IMG/VR virus record: IMGVR_UViG_3300012979_000039
Coordinates: 1 to 64,000 of that record
Direction: 5' to 3' (one strand)
DNA: 64,000 nt
Source of the DNA: a virus
Lineage: Duplodnaviria > Caudoviricetes
Position numbers and translations under genes: made by a program. Below the pieces are notes generated by a model. The model had not been told where the DNA came from. It saw nothing but the letters and a program-made list of their open reading frames with translations, and did no database searches. Positions 26,868 through 64,000 of the stretch are shown one piece after another (the stretch's first letter is position 1; every line of letters begins with the position of its first letter).

Positions 26868-26889
26868 ATCCGTGTAGTAGTTAAATGAT

Positions 26890-27078
26890 TTATATTTCTT
26901 CTTCCAATTCTTCCTTAGTCATATAATTCTTGACGAGGATTCTTCCGCTTAGATAGCAAATGCCAAGCATCGAAAACGACCAAATCAATTGTAATATTGC
27001 TGTTTCTGCTTCCGCACATGCAAGGAATAAACTCATAAGGCATACAATGCCAAGAACGGTTTTCATAATCTCTTTCAT
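26890..27078 (-). CDS. small two-TM membrane protein
   Basis: Two hydrophobic stretches. Confidence 0.55.
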   Translation of the reverse strand: MKEIMKTVLGIVCLMSLFLACAEAETAILQLIWSFSMLGICYLSGRILVKNYMTKEELEEEI

Positions 27079-27428
27079 TGTTCATCCTCCTCATCATTAG
27101 TTGTTTCACATTCCTGTAATCTGTCAAGCTCCACTGCGTCCATTGACCAGTATCGCTTTGCTCTGCGGAGGCACCCTCTCCAGAAAGAAAGCCAATCTTT
27201 TGCGTCGTCCTCGTCAAGCATCGTTTCTTGGTTGAGTTCTTCATCCTCTGTCCAAGTGAGAATACCTTTTTCTGTCATGTTGAAATGCCTTACGTTCCTT
27301 GTAGTAAAAGCGTCTTCATAAAGAGCGATCTCACCTGCTTCGTTTACGTCAGATTCTTTTGCAAAAGCTTCGAGGTCGTCATTGAACCTTTCCCAAGCCT
27401 TGATGTGTCTGTTGCTAATCTTTGTCAT
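27075..27428 (-). CDS. hypothetical protein, first gene after an early promoter
   Basis: Start MTKISN preceded by ACACTACACGG. Confidence 0.6.
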   Translation of the reverse strand: MTKISNRHIKAWERFNDDLEAFAKESDVNEAGEIALYEDAFTTRNVRHFNMTEKGILTWTEDEELNQETMLDEDDAKDWLSFWRGCLRRAKRYWSMDAVELDRLQECETTNDEEDEQ

Positions 27429-27456
27429 TTCCGTGTAGTGTTTAGAAGTGTTTGTA

Positions 27457-27519
27457 TTATAATCACAGGGCAAAATTAATAATTATTTTAAAATAATAAA
27501 AATTTCTTACGGAAAATTT
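27457..27519 (-). promoter_or_regulatory. 63-bp direct repeat, copy 2 (leftward promoter)
   Basis: Identical to 22780-22842. Confidence 0.8.
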
Positions 27520-27593
27520 TATGCCTATTTTATAATATTGTATAATGCAAGCAAAGCTCTACTATGCTAACTTATTGAAACTTAATAAGAACA

Positions 27594-27640
27594 AAGTGAT
27601 TATAATGTAATCGAAAAAATAGAAAAAAGTTTTACCTTTG
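27594..27640 (+). promoter_or_regulatory. promoter for head/tail operon with AAGTGATT box
   Basis: AAGTGATTATAATGTAATC at 27594; TACCTTTG at 27633-27640. Confidence 0.65.
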
Positions 27641-27674
27641 AGGTGTTTAATTAAAAATCTTTTCTATTTTTGCG

Positions 27675-28382
27675 ATGAAAAAGAATCTTATTGCAGCATT
27701 GGCTACCAAGTTCGAGGGCGTCGATGCAAAAATTCTAAGCAGGATTGCTGACAGGATTATGTCAGACAAGACTATCGAGTCAGAGGAGGATGTAAACTCA
27801 GCCGTAGAAGAGGTGACATTCGCTGACATTCTTAAACACTATGGTGACAGCAGGGCTACGGAAGCCACCCGAAAAGCAGTTTCTAACTACGAAAAGAAAC
27901 ACGGCATCAAGGACGGCAAGCCGATAGAACTCAACGAGCAGGAAGACGATGACGAAAGTTCTTCTGACGGCACCAAGAAACAAACCCAACAATCAAATCA
28001 GGAAGGAGAGTTGGCAAAACTCCTCAAGCAGATGTCCGCAAAGATGGACGCACAGGCAGAGGAAATCAAGCAACTCAAACTTGGCAAGGTCGCGGAATCG
28101 CGTGAGAAAATCCTTGACGGTGTTATCAAGGACCTCAAAGAGTCACAGAAGAAGCCTTACAGGCGTTACACCCTTGAATCTATGACAGACGAGGAGTTTG
28201 ACGCGTTTATTGAGGAGATAACAGGTGAGGTGGCGGAAGTGGTCAAGGAAAACAAAGCCACAGAAGCAGCCGGGTTCAACCCTCTTTTTGGCGGTCAGAG
28301 ACATAGTGACGAAGGCCCTGACACGAAAGCGACCGATGCCGAAGTGGATGCGATTGTGGGCAAACTCGCAACAAACCTTTAA
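27675..28382 (+). CDS. capsid scaffolding protein
   Basis: Acidic, coiled-coil; first gene of the head operon; YGDSRATEA...YEKKHGIKDGK. Confidence 0.6.
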   Translation: MKKNLIAALATKFEGVDAKILSRIADRIMSDKTIESEEDVNSAVEEVTFADILKHYGDSRATEATRKAVSNYEKKHGIKDGKPIELNEQEDDDESSSDGTKKQTQQSNQEGELAKLLKQMSAKMDAQAEEIKQLKLGKVAESREKILDGVIKDLKESQKKPYRRYTLESMTDEEFDAFIEEITGEVAEVVKENKATEAAGFNPLFGGQRHSDEGPDTKATDAEVDAIVGKLATNL

Positions 28383-49667: not shown

Positions 49668-50243
49668 ATGAAGAAGAATATCATAGGAGCATTACTGCTT
49701 ATTCTCGGCATAGTCATCGGTTGGCTCTGCCGAGGACGCTTTCTTGGTGACGCTCCGGCAGTGCAGAGGGATACGACTGTGGTCTATAAGACGGTAAGGT
49801 ATTCAAGATTGGAGTTGGATTACCTGACTTACAGACTGGACTTGCCGAAGATAGGCAACAAGGAGTATGTGTTTATCAGGGAGGACTCCACTTCCATTAT
49901 ATACCGAGACAGTATCAGATATGTCACACTTCCTCGTCAGTTTTTCTACACAAGGACAAACGAGGCAGAGATATTCCACTCCGGCATTGATTCAAGGATT
50001 GACAGTCTGAATGTCTACATGAGAAACACGAGCGTCACGCAGGTGATAAGACCGAGAGAGAAGAAGCACTCCATAGGCATAGGGATAGAGGCGAACTACG
50101 CCACTGCCTTCAACATGCCCGTGCAGTTGGAATACTCCTACATGGTTAGACCTTGGCTCTCCGTCTACGGATATGCGGAGTACGAGCCATTCCGAAGGCA
50201 GTTTGGAGTGGGAATAGGCACCAAGATGTTATTAGAGTGGTAA
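49668..50243 (+). CDS. N-terminally anchored membrane protein (spanin/outer-membrane lysis candidate)
   Basis: Signal/TM N-terminus; beta-rich C-terminus ending in W; follows the endolysin. Confidence 0.5.
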   Translation: MKKNIIGALLLILGIVIGWLCRGRFLGDAPAVQRDTTVVYKTVRYSRLELDYLTYRLDLPKIGNKEYVFIREDSTSIIYRDSIRYVTLPRQFFYTRTNEAEIFHSGIDSRIDSLNVYMRNTSVTQVIRPREKKHSIGIGIEANYATAFNMPVQLEYSYMVRPWLSVYGYAEYEPFRRQFGVGIGTKMLLEW

Positions 50244-50535
50244 GCGTTTAAATCAAGGATTTATTTTGCCTCTGTAACTTGGTATAAGTCAACAACTTAT
50301 AGAGAACAATCAGAATAAACCTTTTAAAGAGTGCTTATTTGGCGTTTAAAATCAGAGTTAAATTATTTAAATTTATGGCGACAAAAAGAAGACTTACCGT
50401 AGCCCCCAAAAAGCCTGCGGTATCATTAAAGAAAGTATCAATAGATGAATTGTCGAGGGAATCTGACAAGGCTAATAAGAAGAGACTGTATAAGCCAAGG
50501 GTTCGTTTGACGGCTCACATCAAGAAGACTGTAAG

Positions 50536-50925
50536 ATGATCGAAGAATTGGTAAGCATTTTGAGAAAAGTAACGACAACGGTGAAGGTCGCTCCGTTTGC
50601 GATAGCCCTATTCTATCTCTTGACAATATTGGGATATATGTATATGCCGGACATTGCCATCTATCTGCTTGACACTCTGCTTTATTTCTCACCGATAAGT
50701 GTGGTGCTTATGTTCATTCTGTCAAAGCAGTTAAGATTGTGTTTTTGGCATCGTCTGGAATGCTCTCTCCCGGTTTTGTGCATGGTGCCGGGTATAATCG
50801 ACGACCTGTTCATTTCGCTGACGGAGGCGGCAACCTATATCAATGCAGTTACGTTGTCACTTGTTCTGCTTCTTTCCATAATCAATGCTTACTTTGTATT
50901 TGTCAAGCCGAGTGTAAGAAGATGA
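50536..50925 (+). CDS. multi-pass membrane protein
   Basis: Four hydrophobic segments. Confidence 0.6.
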   Translation: MIEELVSILRKVTTTVKVAPFAIALFYLLTILGYMYMPDIAIYLLDTLLYFSPISVVLMFILSKQLRLCFWHRLECSLPVLCMVPGIIDDLFISLTEAATYINAVTLSLVLLLSIINAYFVFVKPSVRR

Positions 50926-51218
50926 AACGGTTTGTATTGGATATTATCGACTATATCAGGGGTGAAGTAGTCGATGACAAGTGTACCCCAGAACAGTTGC
51001 AGAGGATTTCGGATTTTGCCAAGAACGAACTTCATGTAAAGGGTACGATAGACGACATAGCGGAGTTCTACGGCCAGTCAAGGAACAATGTCAGCAATGT
51101 GCTTTCGAGAAGACCGATACCGAAGGACAAGCGTCCGCAGAGAAGGGTTCTATATGATGTCGGATGGTTTGCGACCTTGGTCCCGGAGTCTTGGAGAAAG
51201 AAAAGAATGAATAAGTAA
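50922..51218 (+). CDS. small putative DNA-binding protein
   Basis: IDDIAEFYGQSRNNVSNVLSRR helix-turn-helix-like segment. Confidence 0.5.
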   Translation: MKRFVLDIIDYIRGEVVDDKCTPEQLQRISDFAKNELHVKGTIDDIAEFYGQSRNNVSNVLSRRPIPKDKRPQRRVLYDVGWFATLVPESWRKKRMNK

Positions 51219-51370
51219 TAGCGGCTTCTCTTGACGAGGAGTTTTTTTACAACACCAAAGTGTCTATAATGCAAACACTTTGGTGTATTTTGTTGTATAA
51301 TGGCATAAGGTGTTGCGAATGCTGAATTTTGTGCTGCGGTTGATGTTGACCGTAATAATATTGTAGTTTT

Positions 51371-52309
51371 ATGTATTCGACAACACCTCAGACTTATGTG
51401 TTCGGTAGCGATAGCGACAAGAACACTTTCGACCCCAACCTTCTGTTGGGAATGATGTTCGGCAATGGTGGATTCGGAGGCTTCGGAGGTGGAGCCAACT
51501 GGATATGGCCATTGTTCCTCTTTGCCCTTTGGGGCGGTAACGGATTCGGTGGATTCGGTAACAACGGCGGTTTTAACGGCCGCGGTGGAGTGGGTTTCCT
51601 TTCTAATCAGATTAACGAAGACACAGGCCGTCAACTTGTGATGCAGGCAATCAACGGTAATGCTACCGCAATCAGCCAACTCGCATCTTCTCTCAACTGT
51701 GCTACGGGCGACATTCAGAACGCTCTCTGTTCTATTCAGAGCAAGATCTGCGATGTGGCAAATCAGGTAGGTATGTCTTCGCTTCAGGTCATCAACGCCA
51801 TTGACCGTGGTGACGCTGCTCTTGCAAGTCAACTTGCACAGTGCTGCTGCGACCTCAAGGGTGCAATCAAGGATGTTGCGATCGGTCAGGAACGTGGCTT
51901 CGCAAGTGTCGCTTACGAGACCCAGCGTCAGACCTGTGACATAGAGAAGGCGATAGCTTCTTCTACCTCACAGATTCTCGAAGGACAGCGTGCCGCAGAG
52001 ATGCGTGAGATGCAGGACAAACTTGATGCCCTCAGGGAGAAGAACGCACAGCAGGCTGTTGTTCTGAACAATGCACAGCAGACCGCTCAGTTTGCGGCTA
52101 TGCTTGCTCCTATTCAGGCGGACCTCGCAGACCTCAAGTGCAATCAGGTGCCAGTGAAGAAGATTGCTTGTCCGGAGACTTATGTACCGGTGAACAACTC
52201 CATCAACGCAACATACGGACTCATTCCGACATATTGCAATGGATTCGGCGCATTCGGTGCGGGATTCGGTTTCCCTAACGGTTGGAACGGTGGTTCGCTT
52301 TGGGGCTAA
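51371..52309 (+). CDS. Gly-rich membrane/coiled-coil protein (cassette gene 1)
   Basis: GGFGG repeats around a TM segment; LAQCCCDL motif. Confidence 0.75.
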   Translation: MYSTTPQTYVFGSDSDKNTFDPNLLLGMMFGNGGFGGFGGGANWIWPLFLFALWGGNGFGGFGNNGGFNGRGGVGFLSNQINEDTGRQLVMQAINGNATAISQLASSLNCATGDIQNALCSIQSKICDVANQVGMSSLQVINAIDRGDAALASQLAQCCCDLKGAIKDVAIGQERGFASVAYETQRQTCDIEKAIASSTSQILEGQRAAEMREMQDKLDALREKNAQQAVVLNNAQQTAQFAAMLAPIQADLADLKCNQVPVKKIACPETYVPVNNSINATYGLIPTYCNGFGAFGAGFGFPNGWNGGSLWG

Positions 52310-52344
52310 GATGTGATTGCTAACTTTTAAGAAAGGAGGTAATT

Positions 52345-52695
52345 ATGTCAACGCTTCTTCCGATTTACATCAATACCAATGTGAATGGTATTCCCGCTTT
52401 GCGAAGCAACAGTGTGACCGTAACTGCAACTGATGTCCGCTTTGACTTCAATAATCATCGCAACATCGGTTCTCCGTTCAGAGGTTACATCACGTTCTTC
52501 CTTGCTCAGCCGGTACCTGCGGGAACGACTACCACTCTTCCGATAGTGTTCACGTCGGACAGCGGTAATCCGCAGCCTCTGACGACCTACAACGGTGCCG
52601 CAGTCACTGTGGCTGACCTGCCGGGAACGGGAATCTACCTTGCTTGGTTCGAGAGGGATACCAACACGCTCCAACTTATCAACGGAGCAATCTAG
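52345..52695 (+). CDS. hypothetical beta-rich protein (cassette gene 2)
   Basis: 116 aa in operon. Confidence 0.7.
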   Translation: MSTLLPIYINTNVNGIPALRSNSVTVTATDVRFDFNNHRNIGSPFRGYITFFLAQPVPAGTTTTLPIVFTSDSGNPQPLTTYNGAAVTVADLPGTGIYLAWFERDTNTLQLINGAI

Positions 52696-52727
52696 CAGAT
52701 TAAGTTAAACGACAATACCGAAACTAT

Positions 52728-53249
52728 ATGTTCAGTGGACTGAGGGAGAATGCTCCCATTTTCATACTCACGAAAGGAGAAAGGCCTGTCTTGCAGGTCG
52801 GAACGGTAGTCAGTGTCAGCAATCCGAATCTCGGATTCGGTTCACAGATGCCGATGTTGAACCCAGGTGCTATCATGGAGGTTACGGTCAAGGTGGGCGA
52901 CAATACCTTTGACCTCAAGAATCTGCCGTGCAATCAGACCTCTTATGTATATACTAAGGAGAATGCCTTTGTTACAGACAACTGGCAGGAGATGCTCAAG
53001 GAGGTGGACAACCTTGAACGTGCGAGTCAGGCTGTCGTGGACAGCGCTCCGCTTCATGCCGACCTTGTGAAATCATACAAGGGAATGAAGGAGGTGCTTG
53101 ACCCGCAGATCGCCAAGGAGAGGGCTAATCAGGAACAGATAGACGACCTCAAAAGCCGTATGGGCGGCATAGAAGACACTCTCGGTCAGATGATGGGGCT
53201 TCTTCAGTCCCTGAACAATAGCGGAGGTAGCAAAAAAGTAAAGGAGTAA
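52728..53249 (+). CDS. hypothetical protein (cassette gene 3)
   Basis: MFSGLR; C-terminal coiled coil. Confidence 0.7.
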   Translation: MFSGLRENAPIFILTKGERPVLQVGTVVSVSNPNLGFGSQMPMLNPGAIMEVTVKVGDNTFDLKNLPCNQTSYVYTKENAFVTDNWQEMLKEVDNLERASQAVVDSAPLHADLVKSYKGMKEVLDPQIAKERANQEQIDDLKSRMGGIEDTLGQMMGLLQSLNNSGGSKKVKE

Positions 53250-53253
53250 AGTT

Positions 53254-53553
53254 ATGGGCTGGAAAATGATTCAGATTCCGAGCGAGAAGGTCTATTCTCT
53301 CAGCGAGCATATCGAGAAGGCTCTCCGTCACGCGGGAAAGGCCATGCAGTGTCTTGAAGACATGACGCCTGAACATGAGATGGGTGAGCGTTACATGGGT
53401 GAACGCTACATGGGCGAAAGAGGCAATTACGGACAAGGCGGTTCGTCATACGGCAGCCGTTCATACGGAAGTTACGGAAACCGTGACGACGAGTGGAATG
53501 AGCGTGAGATGGACGAAAGACGCAGACGTGACTCTCGCGGAAGGTACATGTAA
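53254..53553 (+). CDS. low-complexity protein (cassette gene 4)
   Basis: MGERY repeats; ends RRRRDSRGRYM. Confidence 0.7.
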   Translation: MGWKMIQIPSEKVYSLSEHIEKALRHAGKAMQCLEDMTPEHEMGERYMGERYMGERGNYGQGGSSYGSRSYGSYGNRDDEWNEREMDERRRRDSRGRYM

Positions 53554-53595
53554 AATCAGGGGGCTTGAACTGCCCCCTTTATGACTTGAAAGACT

Positions 53596-54027
53596 ATGAA
53601 CAGAAGAACACCCCTTGACATCTATGAAGTGGAGATGATGCCTGCCGACATGAAGGCTTATCTCCGCAATCACGGCTTTTCGTTTTCCAAGAAGGCTTGT
53701 GACTTTGCGGTGTCGCTTATGGAAAGAAGAAACAAGGCGACTGACAAGGCGGAGAAGATAGAGCCTTACACCAAGGAAAAGACTGAGGAACTTATGACCA
53801 AGTACGGAGTGACCTTGAAGAACAACATAGGCTACAACTTCGTATATGTCATGAATATGACATTTGCTGACTGTTGGAAAGAGTCAATCGAAGACGAACA
53901 CCATCTTGTCAAGCATGTAAAGTGTATAATCGATGACATTGACGACAACCCGGAAAACGTTTTTCGTCTTTGGATAGCCAAGATGGACGGTAACGGTATT
54001 CCTATTCCTTGGGAAGAAATAATGTAG
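53596..54027 (+). CDS. hypothetical protein (cassette gene 5)
   Basis: YLRNHGFSFSKKAC.FAVS.M; PIPWEEIM end. Confidence 0.7.
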   Translation: MNRRTPLDIYEVEMMPADMKAYLRNHGFSFSKKACDFAVSLMERRNKATDKAEKIEPYTKEKTEELMTKYGVTLKNNIGYNFVYVMNMTFADCWKESIEDEHHLVKHVKCIIDDIDDNPENVFRLWIAKMDGNGIPIPWEEIM

Positions 54028-54036
54028 TATTAAGCC

Positions 54037-54471
54037 ATGATAGTACAGGATATATATTTGCCGGAATATGATTGGCATTGCCGTGTATTTTATGCAGTTA
54101 CCTGCTATTGGGCAGATGACATCCTGTATGAACTTCGCAGGACCGGTTGCAACGGCAAGGAATATCATACGGCACAGAACAATCTGTATGATAGTAAGTT
54201 AGATACTGGATTGACGTACTCCAACAGAGAGAGCCGTGAGAGCATAATGGTCATTGCCAAGACCAGTTGCCCAGAGGAGTTTGCCCACTCGTTTGACCAC
54301 GAGAAGGGGCATCTTGCAAAGCATATTGCACTTGCATACGACCTTGACCCCTTTGGAGAGGAGGTTCAATATCTCAGCGGTGACATAGCGAAGGAGATGT
54401 TTCCGATAGCGAAGCGTTTTTTTTGTGAATGCTGCAGAAGAAAACTATATACGAGGCGTAGTGAGCAGTAG
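54037..54471 (+). CDS. putative zincin metalloprotease (cassette gene 6)
   Basis: HEKGH (HExxH) with downstream EE. Confidence 0.55.
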   Translation: MIVQDIYLPEYDWHCRVFYAVTCYWADDILYELRRTGCNGKEYHTAQNNLYDSKLDTGLTYSNRESRESIMVIAKTSCPEEFAHSFDHEKGHLAKHIALAYDLDPFGEEVQYLSGDIAKEMFPIAKRFFCECCRRKLYTRRSEQ

Positions 54472-54504
54472 AATACTCACACGCGAGAGAAGTGCATTTC
54501 ATTA

Positions 54505-54545
54505 CGGGTGACAGAGAGTGGCTAACTCTGTTGCCCGTTGTTGAT
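54505..54545 (+). terminator. intrinsic terminator after the six-gene cassette
   Basis: ACGGGTGACAGAG/CTCTGTTGCCCGT stem, then a T-rich tail. Confidence 0.65.
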
Positions 54546-54564
54546 TTATGTGCTATATTTGCAG

Positions 54565-54701
54565 CATATCGCTCTCGGAACGATTGACTGGCTATCCGCT
54601 TGCCGTTAAAGCGGACAAAGAAAAACTAATACAAATAAAGACTACCAATCAATTATGCATTAGTTCTATGGGGAAGGGTTCAGGCCTTTCCCTTTCTTTT
54701 T
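54565..54701 (+). ncRNA. candidate small RNA (plus strand)
   Basis: TATATTTG at 54554-54561; internal hairpin TCCGCTT/AAGCGGA; terminator GGGAAGG/CCTTTCCC+T; no ORF. Confidence 0.4.
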
Positions 54702-54704
54702 CCT

Positions 54705-54770
54705 AAAAAGGGTAGCCCTCTGCGGCTCACAGAAAGCACGGCAAAGGGCTACTTAATACTACACGGTTCG
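54705..54770 (-). ncRNA. candidate trans-acting antisense sRNA
   Basis: Minus-strand TTTG-N19-TACCTTTG promoter (54802-54772); 5' CCGTGTAGTATTAAG; GTAGCCCT/AGGGCTAC hairpin + T5. Confidence 0.65.
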
Positions 54771-54805
54771 GCAAAGGTAAACTTTTTAGTTTACAAGTCA
54801 AAGAT

Positions 54806-56041
54806 TTACTTGCTTTTTCGGTAATCCTTGCCGTAAAATATATAGTCTATTATCTTTCTGTTTGCGTCATCTACAAGGTCGTTGTCGTAATCTATATATA
54901 TATCAGTTACTTTCAATCCGAAACTGTGCCCCATGCCTCTGCTTATCACCTCTTTGGATATGCCTATCTTCATTGCTACGGTAGCCCAAGTGTGGCGTGC
55001 CCAGTTTGAACTCAAGTCCGGGAAGATGCCTTTCCCAAGAATCTTGCCGCGTTTGCCGAGCGGTCTGCCGATAGCCTTGAGCCCGTCATTGAAATGATGT
55101 AGATAGTCCTTATAGTCGTCATACGAGTCCATAGGGTTGAGCAAGGTACCTCTGCCTTTGTACTTTTCAATGATCGCGATTGCCTCTGGCTCCAGTTTGA
55201 CAGACAGAGGTGTTCCCGTCTTGTTTCTTCGGTAATCTAACCTGCCGTTGGACACCTGCTGTGCAGTAGCAAGGAAAAGGTCTCCGGCATTGATTCCGCG
55301 AAGAAGGAACATGAGGATAAACATATCGCGATACTGCTCTTGATAAGGCTCGCACTTGGCATTTAAGAGGCTTTTGAGTTGTTCCGGCATAAGTGCCTTC
55401 TTCCGCGTATTCTCTTGTCTTAACGGGTACTTTCTGAAAGGATACAAGGTTGTTATGCCCGCGTTGATTGCATCGTTGAATACGGCTCTTATGTTTCTCA
55501 GGTGGATATTCCTGCTGTTCTTCTTCTCTGTCTTGGAACAAAAGGACTCGAACTCCCGAAGATAGTCGTTGGTTATATCCTCAAACGAGCGGGTTGCAAG
55601 ATTAGAGTCATATGCTTCTAACTTTCGGAGAGTATAGGCATACAGCCCTCTTGTCCCGTCATTGCCCTTCAGTTCCATGAAGCGAACAAAACGGAATCGG
55701 AACATATGGCTTTCCTCTATTTTCCGCTTCTTGTCAGGGTCTATGATGTCAATTATCTTGTCACGAAGTTGATATGCAGTTAATCCTCCGCTTTCCCCGT
55801 TTTCCACCAGCCGCAGGATAGCGGAATCTATCTCCAATCTCTTCTTGTTAAGGATAAGATTGATTCTTTTGGCATTCGGATGATTTACCACCTCCTTTCT
55901 TGTCGTACTCCACTGTTGCACTGTTACCTTGATACCTGTATTGATATAAGCCGCCTTGCCGTTCTTCCGTATAGCAAATTTCAGAGGAACCGGTTGATTT
56001 TCCTGAACCGCTCTGGCGTCGAAGTAGATTGTTATTGTCAT
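54806..56041 (-). CDS. int: tyrosine integrase
   Basis: Arm-binding N-terminus (Y.NTGI.V...QW); LRNIRAVFN.A; RGIN..D; YRRNKT; ARHTWAT...MGH...T..Y. Confidence 0.95.
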   Translation of the reverse strand: MTITIYFDARAVQENQPVPLKFAIRKNGKAAYINTGIKVTVQQWSTTRKEVVNHPNAKRINLILNKKRLEIDSAILRLVENGESGGLTAYQLRDKIIDIIDPDKKRKIEESHMFRFRFVRFMELKGNDGTRGLYAYTLRKLEAYDSNLATRSFEDITNDYLREFESFCSKTEKKNSRNIHLRNIRAVFNDAINAGITTLYPFRKYPLRQENTRKKALMPEQLKSLLNAKCEPYQEQYRDMFILMFLLRGINAGDLFLATAQQVSNGRLDYRRNKTGTPLSVKLEPEAIAIIEKYKGRGTLLNPMDSYDDYKDYLHHFNDGLKAIGRPLGKRGKILGKGIFPDLSSNWARHTWATVAMKIGISKEVISRGMGHSFGLKVTDIYIDYDNDLVDDANRKIIDYIFYGKDYRKSK

Positions 56042-56191
56042 ATCCCGCACTGATTTTGCACTTTCTTCTCCCTTAAAATGGAAAAAAATGGAAAGAAATG
56101 CTCTTTTTTTTGACCGGGATAGTCTTGAAATGAGGGGAAAAATAAAGCGATTGACCGTTATAACTAACTGATAATCAATCGCTTTATAGGT

Positions 56192-56236
56192 GTGATTCGG
56201 TTGGGATTCGAACCCAAGACCCACAGCTTAGAAGGT
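56192..56236 (-). other. attP core = 3' half of tRNA-Arg(TCT)
   Basis: Minus strand CCTTCTAAGCTGTGGGTCTTGGGTTCGAATCCCAACCGAATCAC with no 5' half; directly upstream of the integrase. Confidence 0.85.
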
Positions 56237-56323
56237 AAAGTACTGCTGAATCTTATAGCCTTGTAACTTCCTCAATATCAATACTATCCTTGTTCGTGTG
56301 ATAACTACGGTTTTATGCTTGCA

Positions 56324-56605
56324 CTAATTTTGCACTTTTTGATGTTCCACGCGTCTTGCATAGAACTCTCCCTCGCCGGTAAGAAGCCACCTCGCACTAA
56401 CATTATAATCCCTGACGAGGTATGTCAGCCATGCAGTTTGAAAGATATCCCTTCCCGGCTCTTTTTCAAGGGTGTTAAAGTTCCATCGGTTGATTCCATA
56501 CTTCTCGGTAAAAGTTTTCTTTCCCCTTATTGCCTTGTCTGATTTCAGGCGGTATATAGCATCAAAGAACCGAATGACCACTTTTTGACTATCGTTGTTT
56601 TGCAT
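56324..56605 (-). CDS. small HTH-like protein
   Basis: TF..KYGINRWN...WL..LV.DY.VSA.WLLTG.G. Confidence 0.65.
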   Translation of the reverse strand: MQNNDSQKVVIRFFDAIYRLKSDKAIRGKKTFTEKYGINRWNFNTLEKEPGRDIFQTAWLTYLVRDYNVSARWLLTGEGEFYARRVEHQKVQN

Positions 56606-56801
56606 AGGCTTTCTGTATTCTGTTAATCATGTCATTTCTTCTGCATACCCATTCGTTGAGCAATTTCTGCCAATGGGCGAGAGTGCCTGGGGTGAGCCGC
56701 AGAAGCCCGTTGGCGACCATCGCAAGTTCTAGACTTGTCATCACCGGTATGAACTCCTGTACTTCTTCTAGAAGTTGAATGCTGTGCAGTTCTTTTCCCA
56801 T
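56589..56801 (-). CDS. hypothetical protein
   Basis: Co-transcribed with the repressor. Confidence 0.5.
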   Translation of the reverse strand: MGKELHSIQLLEEVQEFIPVMTSLELAMVANGLLRLTPGTLAHWQKLLNEWVCRRNDMINRIQKAYAKQR

Positions 56802-56819
56802 ATATATAATAGGTATATA

Positions 56820-57215
56820 TTACTTTGACATAGCCTGTTTCAAGAGTTCGATGAAAGCGTCATGTTGCTCTTGGAACTTGGCACACATTTTCTGCTCTTC
56901 CGCGAGTGCGTCCAGGGCCTTGTTCAATGCTTCATTTGACGGTCCGTGAATGTCGCCATTGGCTGTGGTGTTGTTGTCGCCAATGACATTCTGATTGTTG
57001 TCTTTTCTGAGCATGCTTCCTTTTTCCCCGTTGCTGAGCAGCCACTCTGGGTCAATTTCCGGACACTTTTCATATACGAGTTCTAGATCCAAGTATCCAC
57101 GCTTGACCCACGAGTAAGCGTTCTGCTCGGACAAATCAAATTTCTGAGCAAAATCTATATTTCTATGGAGTTTATAATAATCTCGTATCTCTTTGAGCAT
57201 CAATTCTTTAGCCAT
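56820..57215 (-). CDS. CI-like repressor
   Basis: FAQKFDLSEQNAYSWVKRG..D...Y.KCPEI.PEWLL...G.M; divergent from a Cro-like gene. Confidence 0.75.
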   Translation of the reverse strand: MAKELMLKEIRDYYKLHRNIDFAQKFDLSEQNAYSWVKRGYLDLELVYEKCPEIDPEWLLSNGEKGSMLRKDNNQNVIGDNNTTANGDIHGPSNEALNKALDALAEEQKMCAKFQEQHDAFIELLKQAMSK

Positions 57216-57358
57216 ATCTCAATAAAAATTTTATTAAAAATAATTAAAATAAATTTTTATAAATTAGAAATAATTATTATTTTTGCCTCGTTAATTTCAA
57301 CAAAGATAGAAAAACTTTTGTAAAAATTATTAAAAATATTGTTTAAAATTTTTAGAGT

Positions 57359-57550
57359 ATGCCAGAATTAAAGACAGAAATCGAAAAGCGCAGGGACGAG
57401 AGAAACAGAAGTATCTGCTCTGAGTTTAAGAAGCTTAAGGAGAAAGACACGTCACTATCTACTCACCGCATTGCATCGCATTTAGCAGAGAAGTATAACC
57501 TTACTACCCAGGCGATAACCCTTATCGTCAAGGCGGCTAATCTCTGCTGA
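57359..57550 (+). CDS. Cro-like HTH protein
   Basis: First rightward gene; LAEKYNLTTQAI..IVK. Confidence 0.6.
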   Translation: MPELKTEIEKRRDERNRSICSEFKKLKEKDTSLSTHRIASHLAEKYNLTTQAITLIVKAANLC

Positions 57551-57552
57551 TT

Positions 57553-57753
57553 ATGATTACCGGAATCAAGCCAAACGTGAACAAGGAGCGCAGGTATTCA
57601 GTGCCTGAGACCTATACACTTCTTGGCATCAATCGCAAGACACTGATGAAGTACACGGAGCGGCAGCAGATTATCCCAATCGTACACTCGGCTAATAACC
57701 GCCTATACTACACGGGAGAAGAAATACTCCGCTTCTGGAACGCAGTTTCATAA
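57553..57753 (+). CDS. excisionase-like HTH protein
   Basis: YSV.ET..LLGINRKTL.KY...RLYYTGEEILRFW. Confidence 0.7.
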   Translation: MITGIKPNVNKERRYSVPETYTLLGINRKTLMKYTERQQIIPIVHSANNRLYYTGEEILRFWNAVS

Positions 57754-57777
57754 CATTAACATTTTAATACTACACAA

Positions 57778-58638
57778 ATGGAAACATTACAAGTGACTCA
57801 GATTCAGAGAGCAGAAACACTTGAAGCTCTCAATCGTTCTGAAATCGACATCCAGATTTCAACAGCAAAGAAGTTCCCTCGTTCAGTGGAACAGTCAACC
57901 AAGAGGATAATGGCACTTGCCACTATTGATGAAGAAACCGCACAAGAGTGCTTTTACTCCCTCCGCAGGGGCAAAGGCGAAAGTGCATCAGCAGTAGAAG
58001 GACCGAGCGTAAGACTTGCGGAGATCGTCGCAGCATCTTGGGGCAATCTCAGAGTTCAGTCGCAGGTTGTGAGCAATGACGGCAAGTTCATCACAGCAAG
58101 GGGTATATGTCACGACCTCGAAACTAACACCGCAGTATCTTGTGAAGTGCAGAGAAGAATCACTGACAAGTACGGCAAGACATTCAGCGAAGATATGCAG
58201 GTCGTTACCGGCAACGCGGCTGGCGCAATCGCCTTTAGAAATGCCGTATTCAAGGTAGTGCCAAAGGCAGTGATAAACAATACCGTCAAGGCAATCAAAC
58301 AGGTGGCAATCGGTCAAGCAAACAATCTTGAGGAACGCAAGAGCAATATGCTCAAGTTCTTTGCTTCTATCGGCGTGACAAGGGAAATGGTGCTGTCGTA
58401 CCTTGAGGTCGAGGCAACCGAGCAGATAGATATGGAAATGGTAATGGAAATGGTTGGTCTTGTCAACGCAATCAAGGAAGGCACGACCACAAAGGAGGAA
58501 GCCCTTATCAATCCATACAACGAGAAGATGCGCAGCAAGACCGCTACAAAAGCAGCAACAGCAACACAGAGCAAGGTCGCAGCAGCATTGCAGAAGCAGG
58601 GCGAGGGAATGTTTGAAGATGATCTTCCAAACGCATAG
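57778..58638 (+). CDS. putative single-strand annealing/recombination protein
   Basis: EID.QI.TAK.FPRS; GPSVRLAE.VA..WGNL; adjacent to a YqaJ exonuclease. Confidence 0.55.
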   Translation: METLQVTQIQRAETLEALNRSEIDIQISTAKKFPRSVEQSTKRIMALATIDEETAQECFYSLRRGKGESASAVEGPSVRLAEIVAASWGNLRVQSQVVSNDGKFITARGICHDLETNTAVSCEVQRRITDKYGKTFSEDMQVVTGNAAGAIAFRNAVFKVVPKAVINNTVKAIKQVAIGQANNLEERKSNMLKFFASIGVTREMVLSYLEVEATEQIDMEMVMEMVGLVNAIKEGTTTKEEALINPYNEKMRSKTATKAATATQSKVAAALQKQGEGMFEDDLPNA

Positions 58639-58665
58639 AGGGCAGCTACTTAATACTACACGCAA

Positions 58666-59634
58666 ATGGCTAATTTCACAATCAGAGCCAATAATCACAA
58701 AGAGTGGTTGGAGGCAAGGAAAGGAGGTATCGGTGCATCAGAGATAGGCACCATCCTCGGTGTCAATCCATACGACACTCCTTATCAGTTGTGGCTCCGC
58801 AAGACAGGCAGAGTACAGGAAGTAGAGAGCGAGAACTTCCTAATGAAAGCGGGACACTATCTTGAAGATGCAATCTCAAAGTTCTGTGCCGATGAAACCG
58901 GCATCGAGATCATCAAGCGTTCCGCAGAGGAGTTCGTCGTAGTCAATCAAGATAAGCAGTTCCTCCGTGTTAGTCCCGACCGATATGCTTGGCTGCCTAA
59001 TGCGAAGCACACACAAGATAACAAGGTTGTCGTTGAATGCAAGTCAACACAGAAGCAGATATTCGATGATGATATTCCTCTCACTTGGTTCACGCAGGTG
59101 ATATATCAACTTGGCGTGTGCGAAATGAATCAGGCATATCTTGCTTGGCTGACACAAGGCAGGGACTTCGGATATAAGCATATCGTTTTTGACAAGGACT
59201 TCTACAATGATGTAATCGTTGCGGAAATCGAAAAGTTCTGGGTTGATAACATCCTCGGAGACCAGGAGCCTGCTCTTTTGAACATCGAAGATGTGAAGAG
59301 AAAGTATCCGATTCACAATGTCGGAAAGTCAGTCGAAGCGACAGATGAACTCCTTGACAGGTATCACACTCTTGTCGATGTGAATGCAAAGATAAAGGAA
59401 CTTTCGGCTATCAAAACAGAGGCCGAGAATGCCCTCAAATTTGCCCTTCAAGACGCGGAAAGTCTAATTATACCAGCGACAAACGAAATGCCGTTCAAGA
59501 CCCTTGCTACTTGGAAAGCAGCCAAGGAATCAAGCAAGTTCGACGAGAAGGCATTTGCAGCGGAGAATCCAGAACTGTATTCAAGATATATGGTCACTAC
59601 TCCGGGCAGTCGCAGATTCATGCTTAAACAGTAA
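58666..59634 (+). CDS. YqaJ-like viral recombinase exonuclease
   Basis: WL..RK.GIGASE...ILG.NPY.TPYQLW..KTG; SPDR; VECKS; Q.IYQLGV. Confidence 0.9.
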   Translation: MANFTIRANNHKEWLEARKGGIGASEIGTILGVNPYDTPYQLWLRKTGRVQEVESENFLMKAGHYLEDAISKFCADETGIEIIKRSAEEFVVVNQDKQFLRVSPDRYAWLPNAKHTQDNKVVVECKSTQKQIFDDDIPLTWFTQVIYQLGVCEMNQAYLAWLTQGRDFGYKHIVFDKDFYNDVIVAEIEKFWVDNILGDQEPALLNIEDVKRKYPIHNVGKSVEATDELLDRYHTLVDVNAKIKELSAIKTEAENALKFALQDAESLIIPATNEMPFKTLATWKAAKESSKFDEKAFAAENPELYSRYMVTTPGSRRFMLKQ

Positions 59635-59690
59635 TTCACTATGCTATGTGCTGAGATTTTGTCTTGGCACATAGCTTAAATTGTATCTAT

Positions 59691-60005
59691 ATGGAATATA
59701 AAGAAATTACAATAAAGCTCCCAATCATCAAAGTAAAGCAGAATGTGGATATATACTCCTATGATTGGGCAAAAGATAATACCCCAGAGGGAATGTATAT
59801 TGTTGACAACGGTATAATTCGTTTCCTTTGCTCTAGACACTTGGATTATTCTCCGAGTTGTATGGAACTGCCGACCGGTATCATCGACTCTGCTATTGCT
59901 CACGAAGTTCAAGAAACAACATTGGTGCAAGTCCTCGCAGCTCTCAATTCAATGCTCGAAGCCCTTAAAGACAATTCTGACAAGATAAGAGAGGCGAAAA
60001 AATAG
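59691..60005 (+). CDS. hypothetical protein
   Basis: ORF in the rightward early operon. Confidence 0.5.
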   Translation: MEYKEITIKLPIIKVKQNVDIYSYDWAKDNTPEGMYIVDNGIIRFLCSRHLDYSPSCMELPTGIIDSAIAHEVQETTLVQVLAALNSMLEALKDNSDKIREAKK

Positions 60006-60011
60006 ATTATT

Positions 60012-60239
60012 ATGAAAGAATTGTTACATGAATTAAGGCTTGACACTCTGATTCAAGGTATGGATGTCAGCAGTTATATCGCACAGTTGCTTGAGAAGAA
60101 TGACAACCAGGAGATTGAGATAGAGAGAGGCAAGTTGAGTGTTGCGATGCTCAAGCAGATGAATAATCACAGTCGCTTGGTGCTTGATGCTTACAAGTAC
60201 AAGTTGAAGGCTTCTGAATTGAAGAATATAGAACCGTAA
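60012..60239 (+). CDS. hypothetical protein
   Basis: 75-aa helical ORF. Confidence 0.55.
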   Translation: MKELLHELRLDTLIQGMDVSSYIAQLLEKNDNQEIEIERGKLSVAMLKQMNNHSRLVLDAYKYKLKASELKNIEP

Positions 60240-60248
60240 ATAATAACA

Positions 60249-60350
60249 ATCGGGTAGGCTGTACTACCTTAATACGAGGGAATTTTCCACTCGGAAAGAC
60301 TGTCTAACTAGTTGCTATACAGCTACAGCACGCCCCACATCGTTTTATCC
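60249..60350 (+). ncRNA. natural single-guide-like RNA upstream of dead Cas12f
   Basis: Homologous to the tracr at 61520-61575 with compensatory stem changes; loop GCTGTA complementary to TACAGC (60324-60329), followed by a putative guide. Confidence 0.6.
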
Positions 60351-60359
60351 TAAATCGCT

Positions 60360-61511
60360 ATGGTTATCACAAGAAGAATTGAAGTCTTTATCTGCGAGGA
60401 TGATAAAGACCTCCGTAAGTCGTATTACGAAAAACTCTACGACAACAGTAAGGCGGCAGTCGCTACCGCTAATATGGCTATCTCGCATTTGTATATGCTT
60501 GACAATACAACCCCTTATCTCTCGGAAGAAGATAGAGAGAAGATAGTCTATCTCGGAGCAAAGGGAAGTGCTGCAACAAGAAACAATGCACCCTATGTCA
60601 AGGCTTCCGAGATGTTCAAAGGAAAGGCGGATATGGGTATGCTTTCCTGCGTATGTCAGGAAGTACGAAAGGTCTATCAGGACGACCGAAAGAAAGGAAT
60701 GTGGAATAGGTCACTCCGTTCATATAAGGCGAATATGCCAATGCCGTTTAAGGCGGAAAGATTCTGTGATCTTCGCATTTCCGAATATCACGATAAGGAA
60801 GATACTGTCCGCAAAGGGTGCCTCTTCACTCTTATGGGTATCCCTTTCCAATGTAGATTCGGCAGGGATAGGAGTAACAACAGAGTGATTGTGGAAAGAG
60901 TCATAGAGGGAGATTACAAGATGTGTACATCTTCCATTCAGATTGATGGGAAGAAGATATATCTGCTTTTGCGTGTCGATATTCCTGTTCAGGAACATAA
61001 ACTGACAGAGGGTAAACAGATATTCGCCTTCCTTGGAGTAATGAATCCTATTGTATGCACTACGGATATAAATTATAATCTCTGTGGCGAGAGCAAGACC
61101 AAGAGTGTTGTTTGGGAGATAGGAACAAAGGAAGAGTTCAACTATCGCAGAAGGCAGATTCAGGAAGCGGTTTGGAGATGTCAGAAGCAGAACAAATATA
61201 GCACGGGAGGTAAGGGCAGAAAGAGGAAGTGTCAGGCAATAGAACGATACCACGAAAAGGAAATGAACTATGTAGACACGAAACTCCATACTTATTCCCG
61301 TGAACTGGTGGATTTAGCCATCAAGCACAAGTGTAGTGAGATAGTTCTCATGTCGCAGAAGAAGAGGGAAGAGAAAGCCAAGAAGGACAACGCAGTTGAA
61401 GAGAAGAACAATCATGAAGAGTTCGTCCTTCGCAACTGGTCTTACTATGGCTTGAAGGAGAAGATTTCCTACAAGTGTAAGATGGCCGGGATTAAGTTGA
61501 TAGAAGAATAA
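60360..61511 (+). CDS. cas12f: nuclease-dead Cas12f-like protein
   Basis: G.GRKRK; H.YSR.LVD.A.K..C..I; LRNWSYY.L..KI.YK...AGI align to Cas12f; RuvC-I Asp and RuvC-II Glu replaced (AFLGV, IVLMSQ); ends before the Zn finger and RuvC-III. Confidence 0.85.
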   Translation: MVITRRIEVFICEDDKDLRKSYYEKLYDNSKAAVATANMAISHLYMLDNTTPYLSEEDREKIVYLGAKGSAATRNNAPYVKASEMFKGKADMGMLSCVCQEVRKVYQDDRKKGMWNRSLRSYKANMPMPFKAERFCDLRISEYHDKEDTVRKGCLFTLMGIPFQCRFGRDRSNNRVIVERVIEGDYKMCTSSIQIDGKKIYLLLRVDIPVQEHKLTEGKQIFAFLGVMNPIVCTTDINYNLCGESKTKSVVWEIGTKEEFNYRRRQIQEAVWRCQKQNKYSTGGKGRKRKCQAIERYHEKEMNYVDTKLHTYSRELVDLAIKHKCSEIVLMSQKKREEKAKKDNAVEEKNNHEEFVLRNWSYYGLKEKISYKCKMAGIKLIEE

Positions 61512-61519
61512 AGACAATA

Positions 61520-61605
61520 TATCGGGGTGGTTGCACACCCTTAACGGGAGGATTTCTCACTCCTGAAATACCTTTACGAAAGTGGTTTGTAGGTAGTTAT
61601 GTCGG
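61520..61605 (+). ncRNA. tracrRNA candidate
   Basis: GGGTG-GTTGCA-CACCC hairpin whose loop complements the repeat end TGCAAC; AATACCTT complements AAGGTAT in the repeat. Confidence 0.7.
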
Positions 61606-61609
61606 ATAG

Positions 61610-61775
61610 GTTGTAAATACCTATAAAACTTAAGGTATATGCAACTCCTCTGTGTTTATGGAAAATTCAATCTGTTGTAAATACCTATAAAAACTCAAGG
61701 TATATGCAACATCGGAGAAAACTTGCCCTCATAAAGACGGTTGTAAACACCTATAAAATTCAAGGTATATGCAAC
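61610..61775 (+). CRISPR. mini CRISPR array: 3 repeats (36-37 bp), 2 spacers (28, 29 bp)
   Basis: GTTGTAAATACCTATAAAACTTAAGGTATATGCAAC at 61610-61645, 61674-61710, 61740-61775; GTTG...ATGCAAC ends as in type V-F; partial ATATGCAAC at 61793-61801. Confidence 0.92.
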
Positions 61776-61848
61776 AACAGCCACAAACTACAATATGCAA
61801 CGAGGACAATTTTATCTTATCTAAACAAATTGTTTAATAAATAGGCAA

Positions 61849-62028
61849 ATGGAAATATTAAAAAAAGGAACAACTGAACATTTCCCGAAAAGGAAGTTTA
61901 CTTGCCCCGACTGTGGGTGTGTATATATAGCGAAATGGAACGAGGTAAATAAGTTTCCAATACCTCATACTATTTGCCCGACCTGTGAAAGACAAATAGA
62001 TTGGGCGGACGGTGCGGATATAGAATAA
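61849..62028 (+). CDS. zinc-ribbon protein (59 aa, not in ORF track)
   Basis: CPDCG...CPTC. Confidence 0.7.
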   Translation: MEILKKGTTEHFPKRKFTCPDCGCVYIAKWNEVNKFPIPHTICPTCERQIDWADGADIE

Positions 62029-62039
62029 AGCATATCAAA

Positions 62040-62702
62040 ATGAATATAGAAGTATTGAATAAGGTTGATATAAGTTCCTTGAAAGAGCGAGTGATGCAAG
62101 GGCGGTTTATCAAGGTGCTGCCGGCATCCGTCTGGCGTGAATATGATTGGGCAGCAGTCCGTCAGTTGATGCACGAAACAGGAACTTATGTTCTTCCAAC
62201 GCAAGAGTTGATTGATTATCTCGCAAGAGAGATAGAGGGAATGCGAACCATTGAGATAGGTGCAGGTAACGGCGTAGTCGGCAGAACTCTCGGAATACCG
62301 ATTACGGACAGTTGCTTGCAGAGGGACAACAAGGCTGTAAGGCAGCATTACGCCATTTGTGGTCAGCCGATAATAAACTACCCAAAGGATATTATCAAAG
62401 CCGAAGCAATGGAGGCTGTAAGGCGTTTTAAGCCGGAGGCGGTTATTGGTTGCTATGTCACTCACAAGTGGCGCAACGACACGCAGTCCGGCAACGATTG
62501 GGGCATCGACTTTGAGCGACTGCTTGCCTCTGTCAAGAAATTCATTCTTGTAGGCAACAGAGTGACGCACAGAGATAATCCGATAATGGTTTTGCCGCAC
62601 ATAGAAGAACGATTCCCTGGTCTTATCACAAGAGCAGGAATAGACGAACCAACTAACTGTGTTTTTATATGGGAAAGAGAGAGAGTAAACGCAGAGTGTT
62701 AA
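62040..62702 (+). CDS. class I SAM-dependent methyltransferase-like protein
   Basis: TIEIGAGNG motif I; ITDS; A.EAV..FKP..VIG. Confidence 0.6.
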   Translation: MNIEVLNKVDISSLKERVMQGRFIKVLPASVWREYDWAAVRQLMHETGTYVLPTQELIDYLAREIEGMRTIEIGAGNGVVGRTLGIPITDSCLQRDNKAVRQHYAICGQPIINYPKDIIKAEAMEAVRRFKPEAVIGCYVTHKWRNDTQSGNDWGIDFERLLASVKKFILVGNRVTHRDNPIMVLPHIEERFPGLITRAGIDEPTNCVFIWERERVNAEC

Positions 62703-62977
62703 GAGTTATCCGACACATCAACAAGGTTATTCGCAAGCAGGGAGTATATAGTTGCGTGGTTGCTGAAATCTATGATTCATCTTTGAGAAAAATAACGAAG
62801 CACGCACCGGCTTGGTATGAGACTACTTGGCACGATGACCGTATCCTTGCTCTCCGATTCTTGAGAAGCAAAGGCTATGTGGTTAGTGTGCGACAGCAAT
62901 GGGCGAATAGTCCGTCCTACTTCAAAGGAGAATTGTTCTATATGAATATGACAAGGATATCAATTAGTAAACCGTAA
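62669..62977 (+). CDS. hypothetical protein
   Basis: Packed ORF. Confidence 0.5.
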   Translation: MGKRESKRRVLRVIRHINKVIRKQGVYSCVVAEIYDSSLRKITKHAPAWYETTWHDDRILALRFLRSKGYVVSVRQQWANSPSYFKGELFYMNMTRISISKP

Positions 62978-62983
62978 TGAGAT

Positions 62984-63166
62984 ATGAAAAGACTGTTTTT
63001 TAGACTGCGGTACTACCTGTATAAAGAGAAAGACCGCAATGGCCGGTGGGCGATAATCGTCCGCGACAAAAGAAAGAAGAAAGAGTACATCCTTTGCGAG
63101 AAGTATCTTGCAAAGAAAAGTGCCGAGGATAGAATTAAGGAGATATATAAAGAAGGAGAATGGTAG
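62984..63166 (+). CDS. hypothetical protein
   Basis: Packed ORF. Confidence 0.5.
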   Translation: MKRLFFRLRYYLYKEKDRNGRWAIIVRDKRKKKEYILCEKYLAKKSAEDRIKEIYKEGEW

Positions 63167-63167
63167 T

Positions 63168-63350
63168 ATGAAGCACATTGAAATATCATGCAACTCGCTT
63201 GCAGAGTGCTATGCACGATTAAGAGACTGCGATTTGATTTATGTCTCCGACCTCGGCAAGAAGTCGAAGGTTGTGATTGACATAGACACGGACTCGCCAT
63301 TCGATGGGTCGTTTATCAATATACCAGAGTGTGAGGAGGAAAGGTTATGA
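63168..63350 (+). CDS. hypothetical protein
   Basis: ATG one base after the previous stop. Confidence 0.5.
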   Translation: MKHIEISCNSLAECYARLRDCDLIYVSDLGKKSKVVIDIDTDSPFDGSFINIPECEEERL

Positions 63351-63736
63351 AAACGCTTGACTTAGTATTGAAGCGAAAGTGGTTTGAGATGATCGCATCC
63401 GGGGAAAAGACCGAAGAGTATAGGGAGATCAAGCCGTACTGGATAAAGAGGCTTATAGAGGAGAGAGACCCTGCACATCACGACTACTATGAGAAAATAA
63501 CAAGCATTCGTGCTGAGTTCTTTTCCGATAGAGTCATTATGTTACAGTATTACTTGGAAGAAGGTTTTGTTAGACGCAAGAACTATGACACTGTGACATT
63601 CTACCTCGGCTACTCAAAAGACCGACCTTCGATGACGTTCAAAATAAAAGACATCGTTATTTCAAGAGGGAAGCAAGAATGGGGTGCAGTATATGGAGAA
63701 TACTATTTTGTATTAAAATTAGGAGAAAGATTATGA
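63347..63736 (+). CDS. ASCH domain protein
   Basis: L.LK.KWFEMIASGEKTEEYREIKPYW..RL; F..GY; WGA. Confidence 0.8.
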   Translation: MKTLDLVLKRKWFEMIASGEKTEEYREIKPYWIKRLIEERDPAHHDYYEKITSIRAEFFSDRVIMLQYYLEEGFVRRKNYDTVTFYLGYSKDRPSMTFKIKDIVISRGKQEWGAVYGEYYFVLKLGERL

Positions 63737-63942
63737 AGAACGTAAACACAGGAATACTCCTCACGCCAACAGAAGCGAGAGGTATTGCGGACATATTGAG
63801 ACTAATCGCAAATATGGAAGACTATGACGAGATTATTAGCGAGGACATAGAGGATGAACGTAAGTCTGCAAAAAGGCTCTATAACCGCCTCTATCCGTTG
63901 CTTCTAATGGGATTCTTAGAGAAAATCCAAGAGAGCAGGTAG
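63733..63942 (+). CDS. hypothetical protein
   Basis: Overlaps the ASCH stop codon. Confidence 0.5.
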   Translation: MKNVNTGILLTPTEARGIADILRLIANMEDYDEIISEDIEDERKSAKRLYNRLYPLLLMGFLEKIQESR

Positions 63943-64000
63943 GGAACTAAAATATTGCCCATTTTTATAAGAAAAATTTTTATTATTTTAAAATATTTTA

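Follow-up and report, generated by a model that had tools for sequence, protein, structure and literature searches.

A conserved integrase-linked candidate antisense RNA mirrors a start-site motif of early genes in a Bacteroidales phage

In phage T4 a single factor, RegA, turns off many early mRNAs at the level of translation, acting on a site at their start codons, and RegA operators, like stoperators, are asymmetric and co-oriented with transcription. The sites paired by the c4 RNA cover a ribosome-binding site. Initiation of the Bacteroidetes type relies on unstructured, A-rich leaders rather than on Shine-Dalgarno (SD) pairing, and the phylum is without Hfq. The consensus for sigma-ABfr is TAnnTTTG at -7 with TTTG near -33 (PMC7366714). 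The Cluster K mycobacteriophages carry start-associated sequences (SAS), asymmetric repeats of 10-13 bp that precede the ATG of 10-19 non-structural genes by 3-7 bp, all in one orientation (Pope et al. 2011, PMC3203893), and the same work sets stoperators in contrast to them (PMC3203893). Phages of subcluster K1 have, in addition, a single reversed SAS copy away from any gene start; TM4 and Pixie also carry SAS, and a reversed copy was not reported for them (PMC3203893). The function of SAS was still termed unknown in 2024-2025 (PMC11373665, PMC12699233). In Mycobacterium phage Anaya we found 16 forward SAS copies and one reversed, the latter (record 59870-59882; L164 34871-34883) located within 385 bp of non-coding DNA close to the right genome end, with a terminator-like hairpin upstream of it.

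The window, that is, the whole stretch of DNA analysed here, covers positions 1-64000 of a virus record that consists of one contig of 73,054 bp. A tyrosine-type integrase of 411 aa is encoded on the minus strand (54806-56041), directly upstream of a candidate small-RNA unit. It carries the domains Arm-DNA-bind_5 and Phage_int_SAM_5 (P0001, PF17293/PF13102), its relatives belong to Bacteroidales, and integrated relatives of the phage are located in Bacteroidales-type host DNA. These features place the phage as a temperate one of gut Bacteroidales. The unit, also on the minus strand, begins 3 nt past the integrase stop codon (54806-54808) and sits between convergent operons, with int on one side and the late genes on the other.

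We ruled out that the unit is the attP site, as prophage and host DNA join on the 5' side of int, opposite from the unit. Host genes directly adjoin that 5' side in two integrated relatives (L003 and L019) and the contigs of many relatives end ~180-200 nt upstream of int, which places attP there and leaves the unit linked to both its neighbours, int and the late genes. Near the start of int, a stretch of 44 nt (56192-56235) matches otherwise unrelated Bacteroides phages at 90-98% and is likely an attP core or a shared host target. Three relatives (L003, L008 and L019) are all inserted behind the same host genes (PfkB, DUF6913 and VCA0040-like). Relatives also carry Tad2-like or Acb2/Tad1-type (sequestin) anti-defence genes in a variable slot beside their lysis genes (L003 16454-16873, L014 6750-7175, L008 12456-13049).

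From its 5' end the unit reads as follows. A candidate promoter opens with a -33 box, TTTG (54799-54802), followed by a spacer of 19 nt (54780-54798) and a -7 box, TACCTTTG (54772-54779), that conforms to the TAnnTTTG consensus of sigma-ABfr. A linker of 5 nt, CCGAA (54767-54771), contains the predicted transcription start and leads into an unpaired 5' seed, CCGUGUAGUAUUAA / CCGTGTAGTATTAA (54753-54766), which is the complement of a motif found at gene starts. A hairpin of 41 nt (54712-54752), with 17 bp, two 1-nt bulges and a 5-nt loop, and a tail of CC plus U5 (54705-54711) complete it. The initial annotation had proposed a minus-strand Bacteroidetes promoter, and the consensus TTTG-N19-TACCTTTG is indeed present at 54802-54772, one of two occurrences in the 73-kb genome against 0.7 expected; a perfect consensus promoter at exactly this spot has a chance expectation of ~2e-4. 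The claimed transcript of ~65 nt with an unpaired 5' segment, a hairpin and U5 agrees with the computed fold, which has an energy of -28.4 kcal/mol (z = -4.2) and leaves the first 20 nt unpaired. Likewise, no plausible ORF was found in the unit, and none follows the motif on the plus strand either here or in the relatives, as had been stated for this locus. In silico the unit thus combines the features of the sRNA class, namely a promoter of its own, a terminator hairpin with a U-run and a single-stranded seed complementary to several mRNAs. The 17-bp hairpin is probably the terminator stem of the candidate sRNA and also the terminator of int. A search of 50000-64000 against Rfam 15 gave no match at E<=1, and identity of the unit as a tRNA or tmRNA fragment was rejected. 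A covariance model of the unit (R2) detected a single true copy in the genome and found no copy in L147, in L017 or at other loci, its only sub-threshold hit being the leader of the YqaJ gene (E 0.02).

Integrase homologues 74-85% identical led to eight further distinct copies of the region, and a pattern scan to one more, giving nine relatives; these include the one contig found in JGI metagenomes (L011, 1.5 kb). Across the ~2-kb region from int to the late genes, conservation peaks in the 60 nt of the unit, with 83-90% invariant columns as compared to 30-70% in the flanking genes (int and a 144-aa gene). Variation falls on the unit in a patterned way: 9 of 66 positions vary in the promoter boxes, seed and hairpin, against 30 of 37 in the spacer, linker and flank (Fisher p = 1e-11). 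By part, none of the 4 columns of the -33 box and none of the 8 of the -7 box varies, as against 14 of 19 spacer columns and 5 of 6 linker columns; the seed varies at 1 of 13 columns, the hairpin at 8 of 41 and the sequence past the tail at 11 of 12. Both boxes are therefore invariant in all nine relatives, and the spacer, variable in sequence, keeps its length of 19 nt in eight of them and is 18 nt in the other. Variable and invariant positions interleave (4-19-8-6-13-41) as a promoter, seed and stem predict, which recent exchange of a segment cannot explain.

The hairpin is paired in 100% of cells in the nine sequences, and its covariation score was reached by none of 500 shuffles. The changes in the hairpin are compensatory or fall in bulges. 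At three pairs both sides have changed: C-G became U-A in three sequences, and L019 has A-U in place of U-A and of U-G. One further pair went from C-G to U-G. The tail retains 3-5 T in the relatives, with the caveat that the U-run has only 3-4 U in some. The comparison thus gives strong support for a functional unit and for a hairpin that forms as RNA; conservation of the hairpin would be expected anyway if it is the terminator of int. Judged by sequence comparison, the conserved succession of promoter, seed, hairpin and terminator is a real, selected feature.

The unit was absent from the more distant integrase relatives P0018, P0035 and P0039 and from IMG/VR L020-L031, as well as from two distant relatives of the 144-aa neighbour (L015 and L016), whose genomes are also without the motif-ATG pattern. 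No relative of the region was found among INPHARED phage records, where integrase relatives are <=42% identical. IMG/VR yielded no match to the integrase or YqaJ, none to the hairpin or to the seed plus -7 box, and none to the L017 unit; scans of it for the loose pattern TACCTTTG-N0-6-CCGTGTAGT returned chance hits only, and scans for the motif plus ATG returned single chance hits, with no contig holding several copies. A 20-mer of the hairpin was not found in GTDB species representatives, nor was the unit found in the 401 Bacteroidales genomes searched. The lineage of the phage is a rare one.

In two further integrase lineages the int stop is followed immediately by a TACCTTTG box, after which both the short sequence and the terminator hairpin differ from those of the unit. 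In L017/L018 (integrase 66%) the 5' sequence after the box begins TAGTGTGTTAGATTTG, and in L147 (integrase 64%) it begins CCGTGTAGTTACTACAGCG, which retains CCGTGTAGT, the complement of the motif core. In L147 the -7 box directly adjoins the seed, so that a normal start site would clip part of the seed, which counts against the sRNA reading. The complements of the seeds themselves would be about CTGTAGTAACTACACGG in L147 and about AATCTAACACAC in L017. The contigs that carry the units of both lineages are short, stop at the prophage junction and are without early genes.

The motif to which the seed is complementary, (T)TAATACTACAC(G/A), stops 2-6 nt short of the ATG in about 13 early genes, which have no SD. 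It is always co-oriented with its gene and keeps its place beside the ATG even in upstream gaps of 60-140 nt. The longest match is to the YqaJ-like exonuclease gene (ATG 58666; motif 58645-58663, plus strand), with 18 nt and a predicted duplex energy of -28.7 kcal/mol, and this site is identical in L006. As had been claimed, the match is exact: the 18-mer GCTACTTAATACTACACG occurs only twice in the genome, at 54748-54765 and 58645-58662 (0.02 expected). Also on the plus strand, the motif precedes the 286-aa gene upstream of YqaJ (ATG 57778; 57765-57777; 12 nt; motif-ATG gap 2 nt longer in L006), a DnaD/O-like replication initiator (ATG 1136; 1121-1131; 11 nt) and a DnaC-like helicase loader (ATG 1959; 1943-1952; 10 nt). 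On the minus strand it is found at an ADP-ribosylglycohydrolase (ARH) gene (ATG 19582; 19585-19597; 12 nt), a 143-aa gene (ATG 20645; 20648-20660; 12 nt), a 126-aa gene (ATG 22355; 22359-22367; 8-nt core), a 128-aa gene that is the first behind an operator-like early promoter (ATG 22752; 22755-22767; 13 nt), a 50-aa gene (ATG 25847; 25849-25861; 14 nt), the gene of an ArdC-like anti-restriction protein (ATG 26867; 26870-26882; 10 nt) and a 117-aa gene that is the first behind a second operator-like promoter (ATG 27428; 27431-27443; 9 nt). The lengths given by the initial annotation for YqaJ, 25847, 22752, ARH, 20645, the annealing-protein gene (12 nt), the initiator, ArdC and DnaC were all reproduced. 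The gene at 64050 also has the motif before its ATG, and three additional copies lie in the first codons (codons 2-5) of genes 24756, 21962 and 64050, that of the gene starting at 24756 forming codons 2-4 (24742-24754, minus strand). One copy is internal (57705); all other sense copies are within ~20 nt of an ATG.

At least 9 contiguous nt (9-18 nt) complementary to the 24-nt RNA 5' end are present in 12 of 118 start regions, all of them in early operons, as compared to 0.16 for shuffled seeds. Among ~3,900 genomic 24-mers, a count of at least 10 was reached only by a few at or next to the motif's complement. Nine predicted duplexes of seed and leader range from -15.7 to -28.7 kcal/mol; a duplex-energy cut-off of -12 kcal/mol failed to discriminate, and -15.7 and contiguous matches were used instead. 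The structural block (28-54 kb) has no sense copy of the motif and only one antisense-like 12-mer, which is not conserved. At 54023-54036 (plus strand), on the late mRNA just before the 144-aa gene, TGTAGTATTAAG equals 12 nt of the sRNA seed; it is kept in no relative, and the likeness is, on sequence grounds, probably due to chance.

The products of the motif-bearing genes serve early functions (replication, recombination and anti-defence), and at the head of their operons stand four copies of an operator-like palindrome (22.8, 27.5, 57.26 and 63.97 kb). These AT-rich palindromes, with the core AATTATTTTAAAATAATT, lie ahead of the early operons at 22792-22831, 27469-27508, 57248-57287 and 63949-63998, two of them within a 78-nt repeat that is 94% identical. 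They are probably repressor operators, and the motif genes are probably the repressor-controlled early set. Early-gene sequence was available from one relative, L006 (int 77%, 10 kb of early genes), in which the motif is kept before the orthologues of 57778 and 58666 and before two further early genes. A search for sequencing runs that contain the phage listed no RNA run and two DNA runs. Over 18500-27700 we also compared these two DNA runs, which contain relatives ~10% diverged; among the matches listed, both runs have a 1-nt deletion between motif and ATG at 22755. At 21555-21983 the relative in one DNA run is without the gene 21558-21962 and has instead the 12 nt CGTAGTATTAAA, the complement of the start-motif-like TTTAATACTACG; the start motif may mark cassette junctions. 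Strong SD-like GGAGG sequences precede several genes, mostly late ones (starts 10388, 28808, 52345, 53254 and 63347). Such starts are unusual for a Bacteroidales host and are a class of start region distinct from that of the motif-bearing early genes.

Several further elements lie close to the unit or resemble its seed. Directly after the 144-aa gene, 54472-54545 is a second well-conserved non-coding stretch, whose covarying hairpin, ACGGGTGACAGAG...CTCTGTTGCCCGT, leads into T-rich sequence; the hairpin is probably the terminator of the late operon. The first bases of this stretch, AATACTCACACG, nearly repeat the start motif, and no ORF follows them. Between it and the unit lies an optional cassette of ~150 nt (54548-54703), present here and in L003, L012 and L014, partly present in L006 and absent from L001, L005, L011 and L019. 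It has a -7-like box, TATATTTG, and a terminator of its own (54670-54703), and from its sequence may encode another small plus-strand transcript. Spacers of the neighbouring Cas12f/TnpB-like array gave no match to the start motif. A second copy of the seed in the sRNA sense, CCGTGTAGTAGTA (12/13), is found at 3250-3262 on the plus strand (surroundings 3224-3302), and is a candidate second antisense element. It lies 27 nt past a Holliday-junction-resolvase-like gene (2801-3223) that has its own TACCTTTG promoter and 40 nt before tRNA-Met, and a 9-bp hairpin without a U-run follows it. For the ArdC leader variant, ACTACTACACGG, the complement of this copy is a better match (12 nt) than the main RNA. 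Given this position, the copy could be released as the 5' leader of the tRNA.

Our combined findings tip the balance modestly towards a trans-acting antisense sRNA that would mask early start sites. A host promoter of the sigma-ABfr type after the int stop would start an RNA of ~62-66 nt, of which the first ~15-20 nt would be free and the 3' end would consist of the 17-bp hairpin and U-run, probably terminating int as well. The free 5' end would pair over 9-18 nt with the shared start motif of early mRNAs. Since this pairing would fall within the ribosome footprint of SD-less mRNAs, it is predicted to block initiation. Masking of start regions is plausible because the phylum initiates on unstructured, A-rich leaders and not through SD pairing, and because GibS acts in this way without Hfq. 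The sRNA promoter has no visible operator, so the RNA is probably made in the lysogen. It would then form one RNA-level brake on the early lytic programme, including the initiator, the DnaC-like loader, YqaJ and its partner, ArdC, ARH and small ORFs, and the brake could serve as a leak filter and as superinfection immunity in the lysogen, or as an early shut-off at raised gene dosage. Of the proposal in the initial annotation that one sRNA controls the early regulon, the conserved unit and the seed mirroring a start motif confined to early operons stand, and the regulatory role itself is what we infer from them. Apart from one of its 13 columns the seed does not vary among the nine relatives, which leaves no seed change there for the motif to follow.

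The start motif may also have a function of its own. It could be a protein site, bound by a RegA-type RNA-binding repressor or acting as an asymmetric, stoperator-like DNA site, with the int-linked copy as a decoy or operator and the antisense relation incidental; we consider this unlikely. The asymmetry of the motif and its constant co-orientation with transcription are shared with stoperators and RegA operators, and the orphan copy on the plus strand is co-oriented with read-through from the late operon. For SAS, too, the published view leaves protein and RNA factors both possible (PMC3203893). However, the orphan copy is framed in the opposite orientation by a conserved promoter and terminator, and variation avoids exactly these. 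Moreover, a motif that hugs the ATG in gaps of 60-140 nt, with three copies in codons 2-5, fits a target in the ribosome footprint better than a DNA roadblock. The classical palindrome at early promoters suggests an ordinary dimeric repressor, and no candidate RNA-binding regulator was identified in this phage.

An RNA that is real and has another job, be it on host mRNAs, on int expression or in stabilizing the 3' end of the int mRNA, would owe its likeness to the motif to an inverted duplication of the YqaJ start region. Such an origin would agree with the 18 nt and the GUAG..CUA mini-stem that the sRNA shares with the complement of the YqaJ leader, the sole sub-threshold hit of the covariance model, and the TACCTTTG promoters and hairpins at the same place in two other integrase lineages, with other 5' sequences, indicate that the slot may be tied to int. 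Yet a neutral leftover of duplication would not keep a 13-nt seed while linker and spacer diverge, and the L147 variant retains precisely the complement of the motif core, CCGTGTAGT; we regard this explanation as quite unlikely. It is also conceivable that there is no separate RNA gene at all, the hairpin being the int terminator, the promoter match a coincidence and the motif copy left over from recombination and retained through recent exchange. Terminators are expected between convergent operons, the neighbouring non-coding hairpin at 54472-54545 is likewise well conserved, and the cassette indels show that recombination is active here. The interleaved pattern of variation is, nonetheless, incompatible with recent exchange, and the low chance expectation of a perfect consensus promoter at this spot makes a fortuitous match hard to accept, so that we consider this account very improbable.

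A broader form of the antisense reading is that the phage writes a common "address" into its early start regions, which the int-linked sRNA reads, as an RNA master switch layered on a protein repressor; the same logic would explain the SAS of Cluster K1. We put this forward tentatively, at slightly under even confidence. If true, Bacteroidales phages would have in this unit their first candidate regulatory RNA, and a phage would control at least a dozen of its own genes post-transcriptionally via a built-in target, in a phylum without SD-led initiation or Hfq. It would also predict that immunity has a simple RNA-based determinant, which could influence both superinfection and the induction of gut prophages. 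The long-standing puzzle of the purpose of SAS in phage genomes becomes a directly testable hypothesis. In practical terms, a 65-nt RNA and a 13-nt tag could provide a compact, orthogonal translational switch for Bacteroides engineering.

The initial annotation knew of no described equivalent of the locus, a view that does not hold: SAS of Cluster K is close to the motif (PMC3203893), and c4 of P1/P7 and CI of P4 are known with repeated targets (PMC12197685). Like these two RNAs, the unit would provide a phage small RNA that brakes the phage's own early transcripts via repeated complementary sites (PMC12197685). It has, however, no sequence or structure homology with c4/CI (Rfam C4) and no match to their covariance model. 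Moreover, c4 and CI are processed from a transcript that also holds their two targets, whereas the candidate RNA has its own promoter beside int and ~13-16 putative targets over several operons, on both strands and 3-37 kb away, in a Bacteroidales host without Hfq or SD-led initiation. P22 sar and lambda OOP are also small phage antisense RNAs that tune lysis-lysogeny genes (PMC12197685), but they are cis-encoded opposite a single target and the unit is trans-encoded with many putative targets. GibS of B. thetaiotaomicron offers a likeness in mode of action, as it is trans-encoded, places a conserved unpaired 5' seed across start regions and represses through extended pairing without Hfq (PMC7366714); it differs in being chromosomal, with metabolic targets and imperfect pairing, and is neither homologous to the unit nor phage-borne. 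In T4 RegA the common factor is a protein, whereas the candidate factor here is an RNA. Stoperators of the L5 type are spread across early and late operons and are not tied to gene starts, in contrast to the present motif, which is start-tied and without a sense copy in the structural region. With SAS the motif shares an asymmetric sequence a few nt before the ATG, restriction to non-structural genes and a single orientation. The SAS consensus GGGATAGGAGCCC contains an SD core, whereas the motif here is G-poor (TAATACTACAC(G/A)) and belongs to an SD-less host, and no RNA partner was proposed for SAS, whereas a candidate RNA partner is found here. The unit is not a member of the C4 family; it would be akin in kind to the phage antisense immunity RNAs, with a link to SAS.
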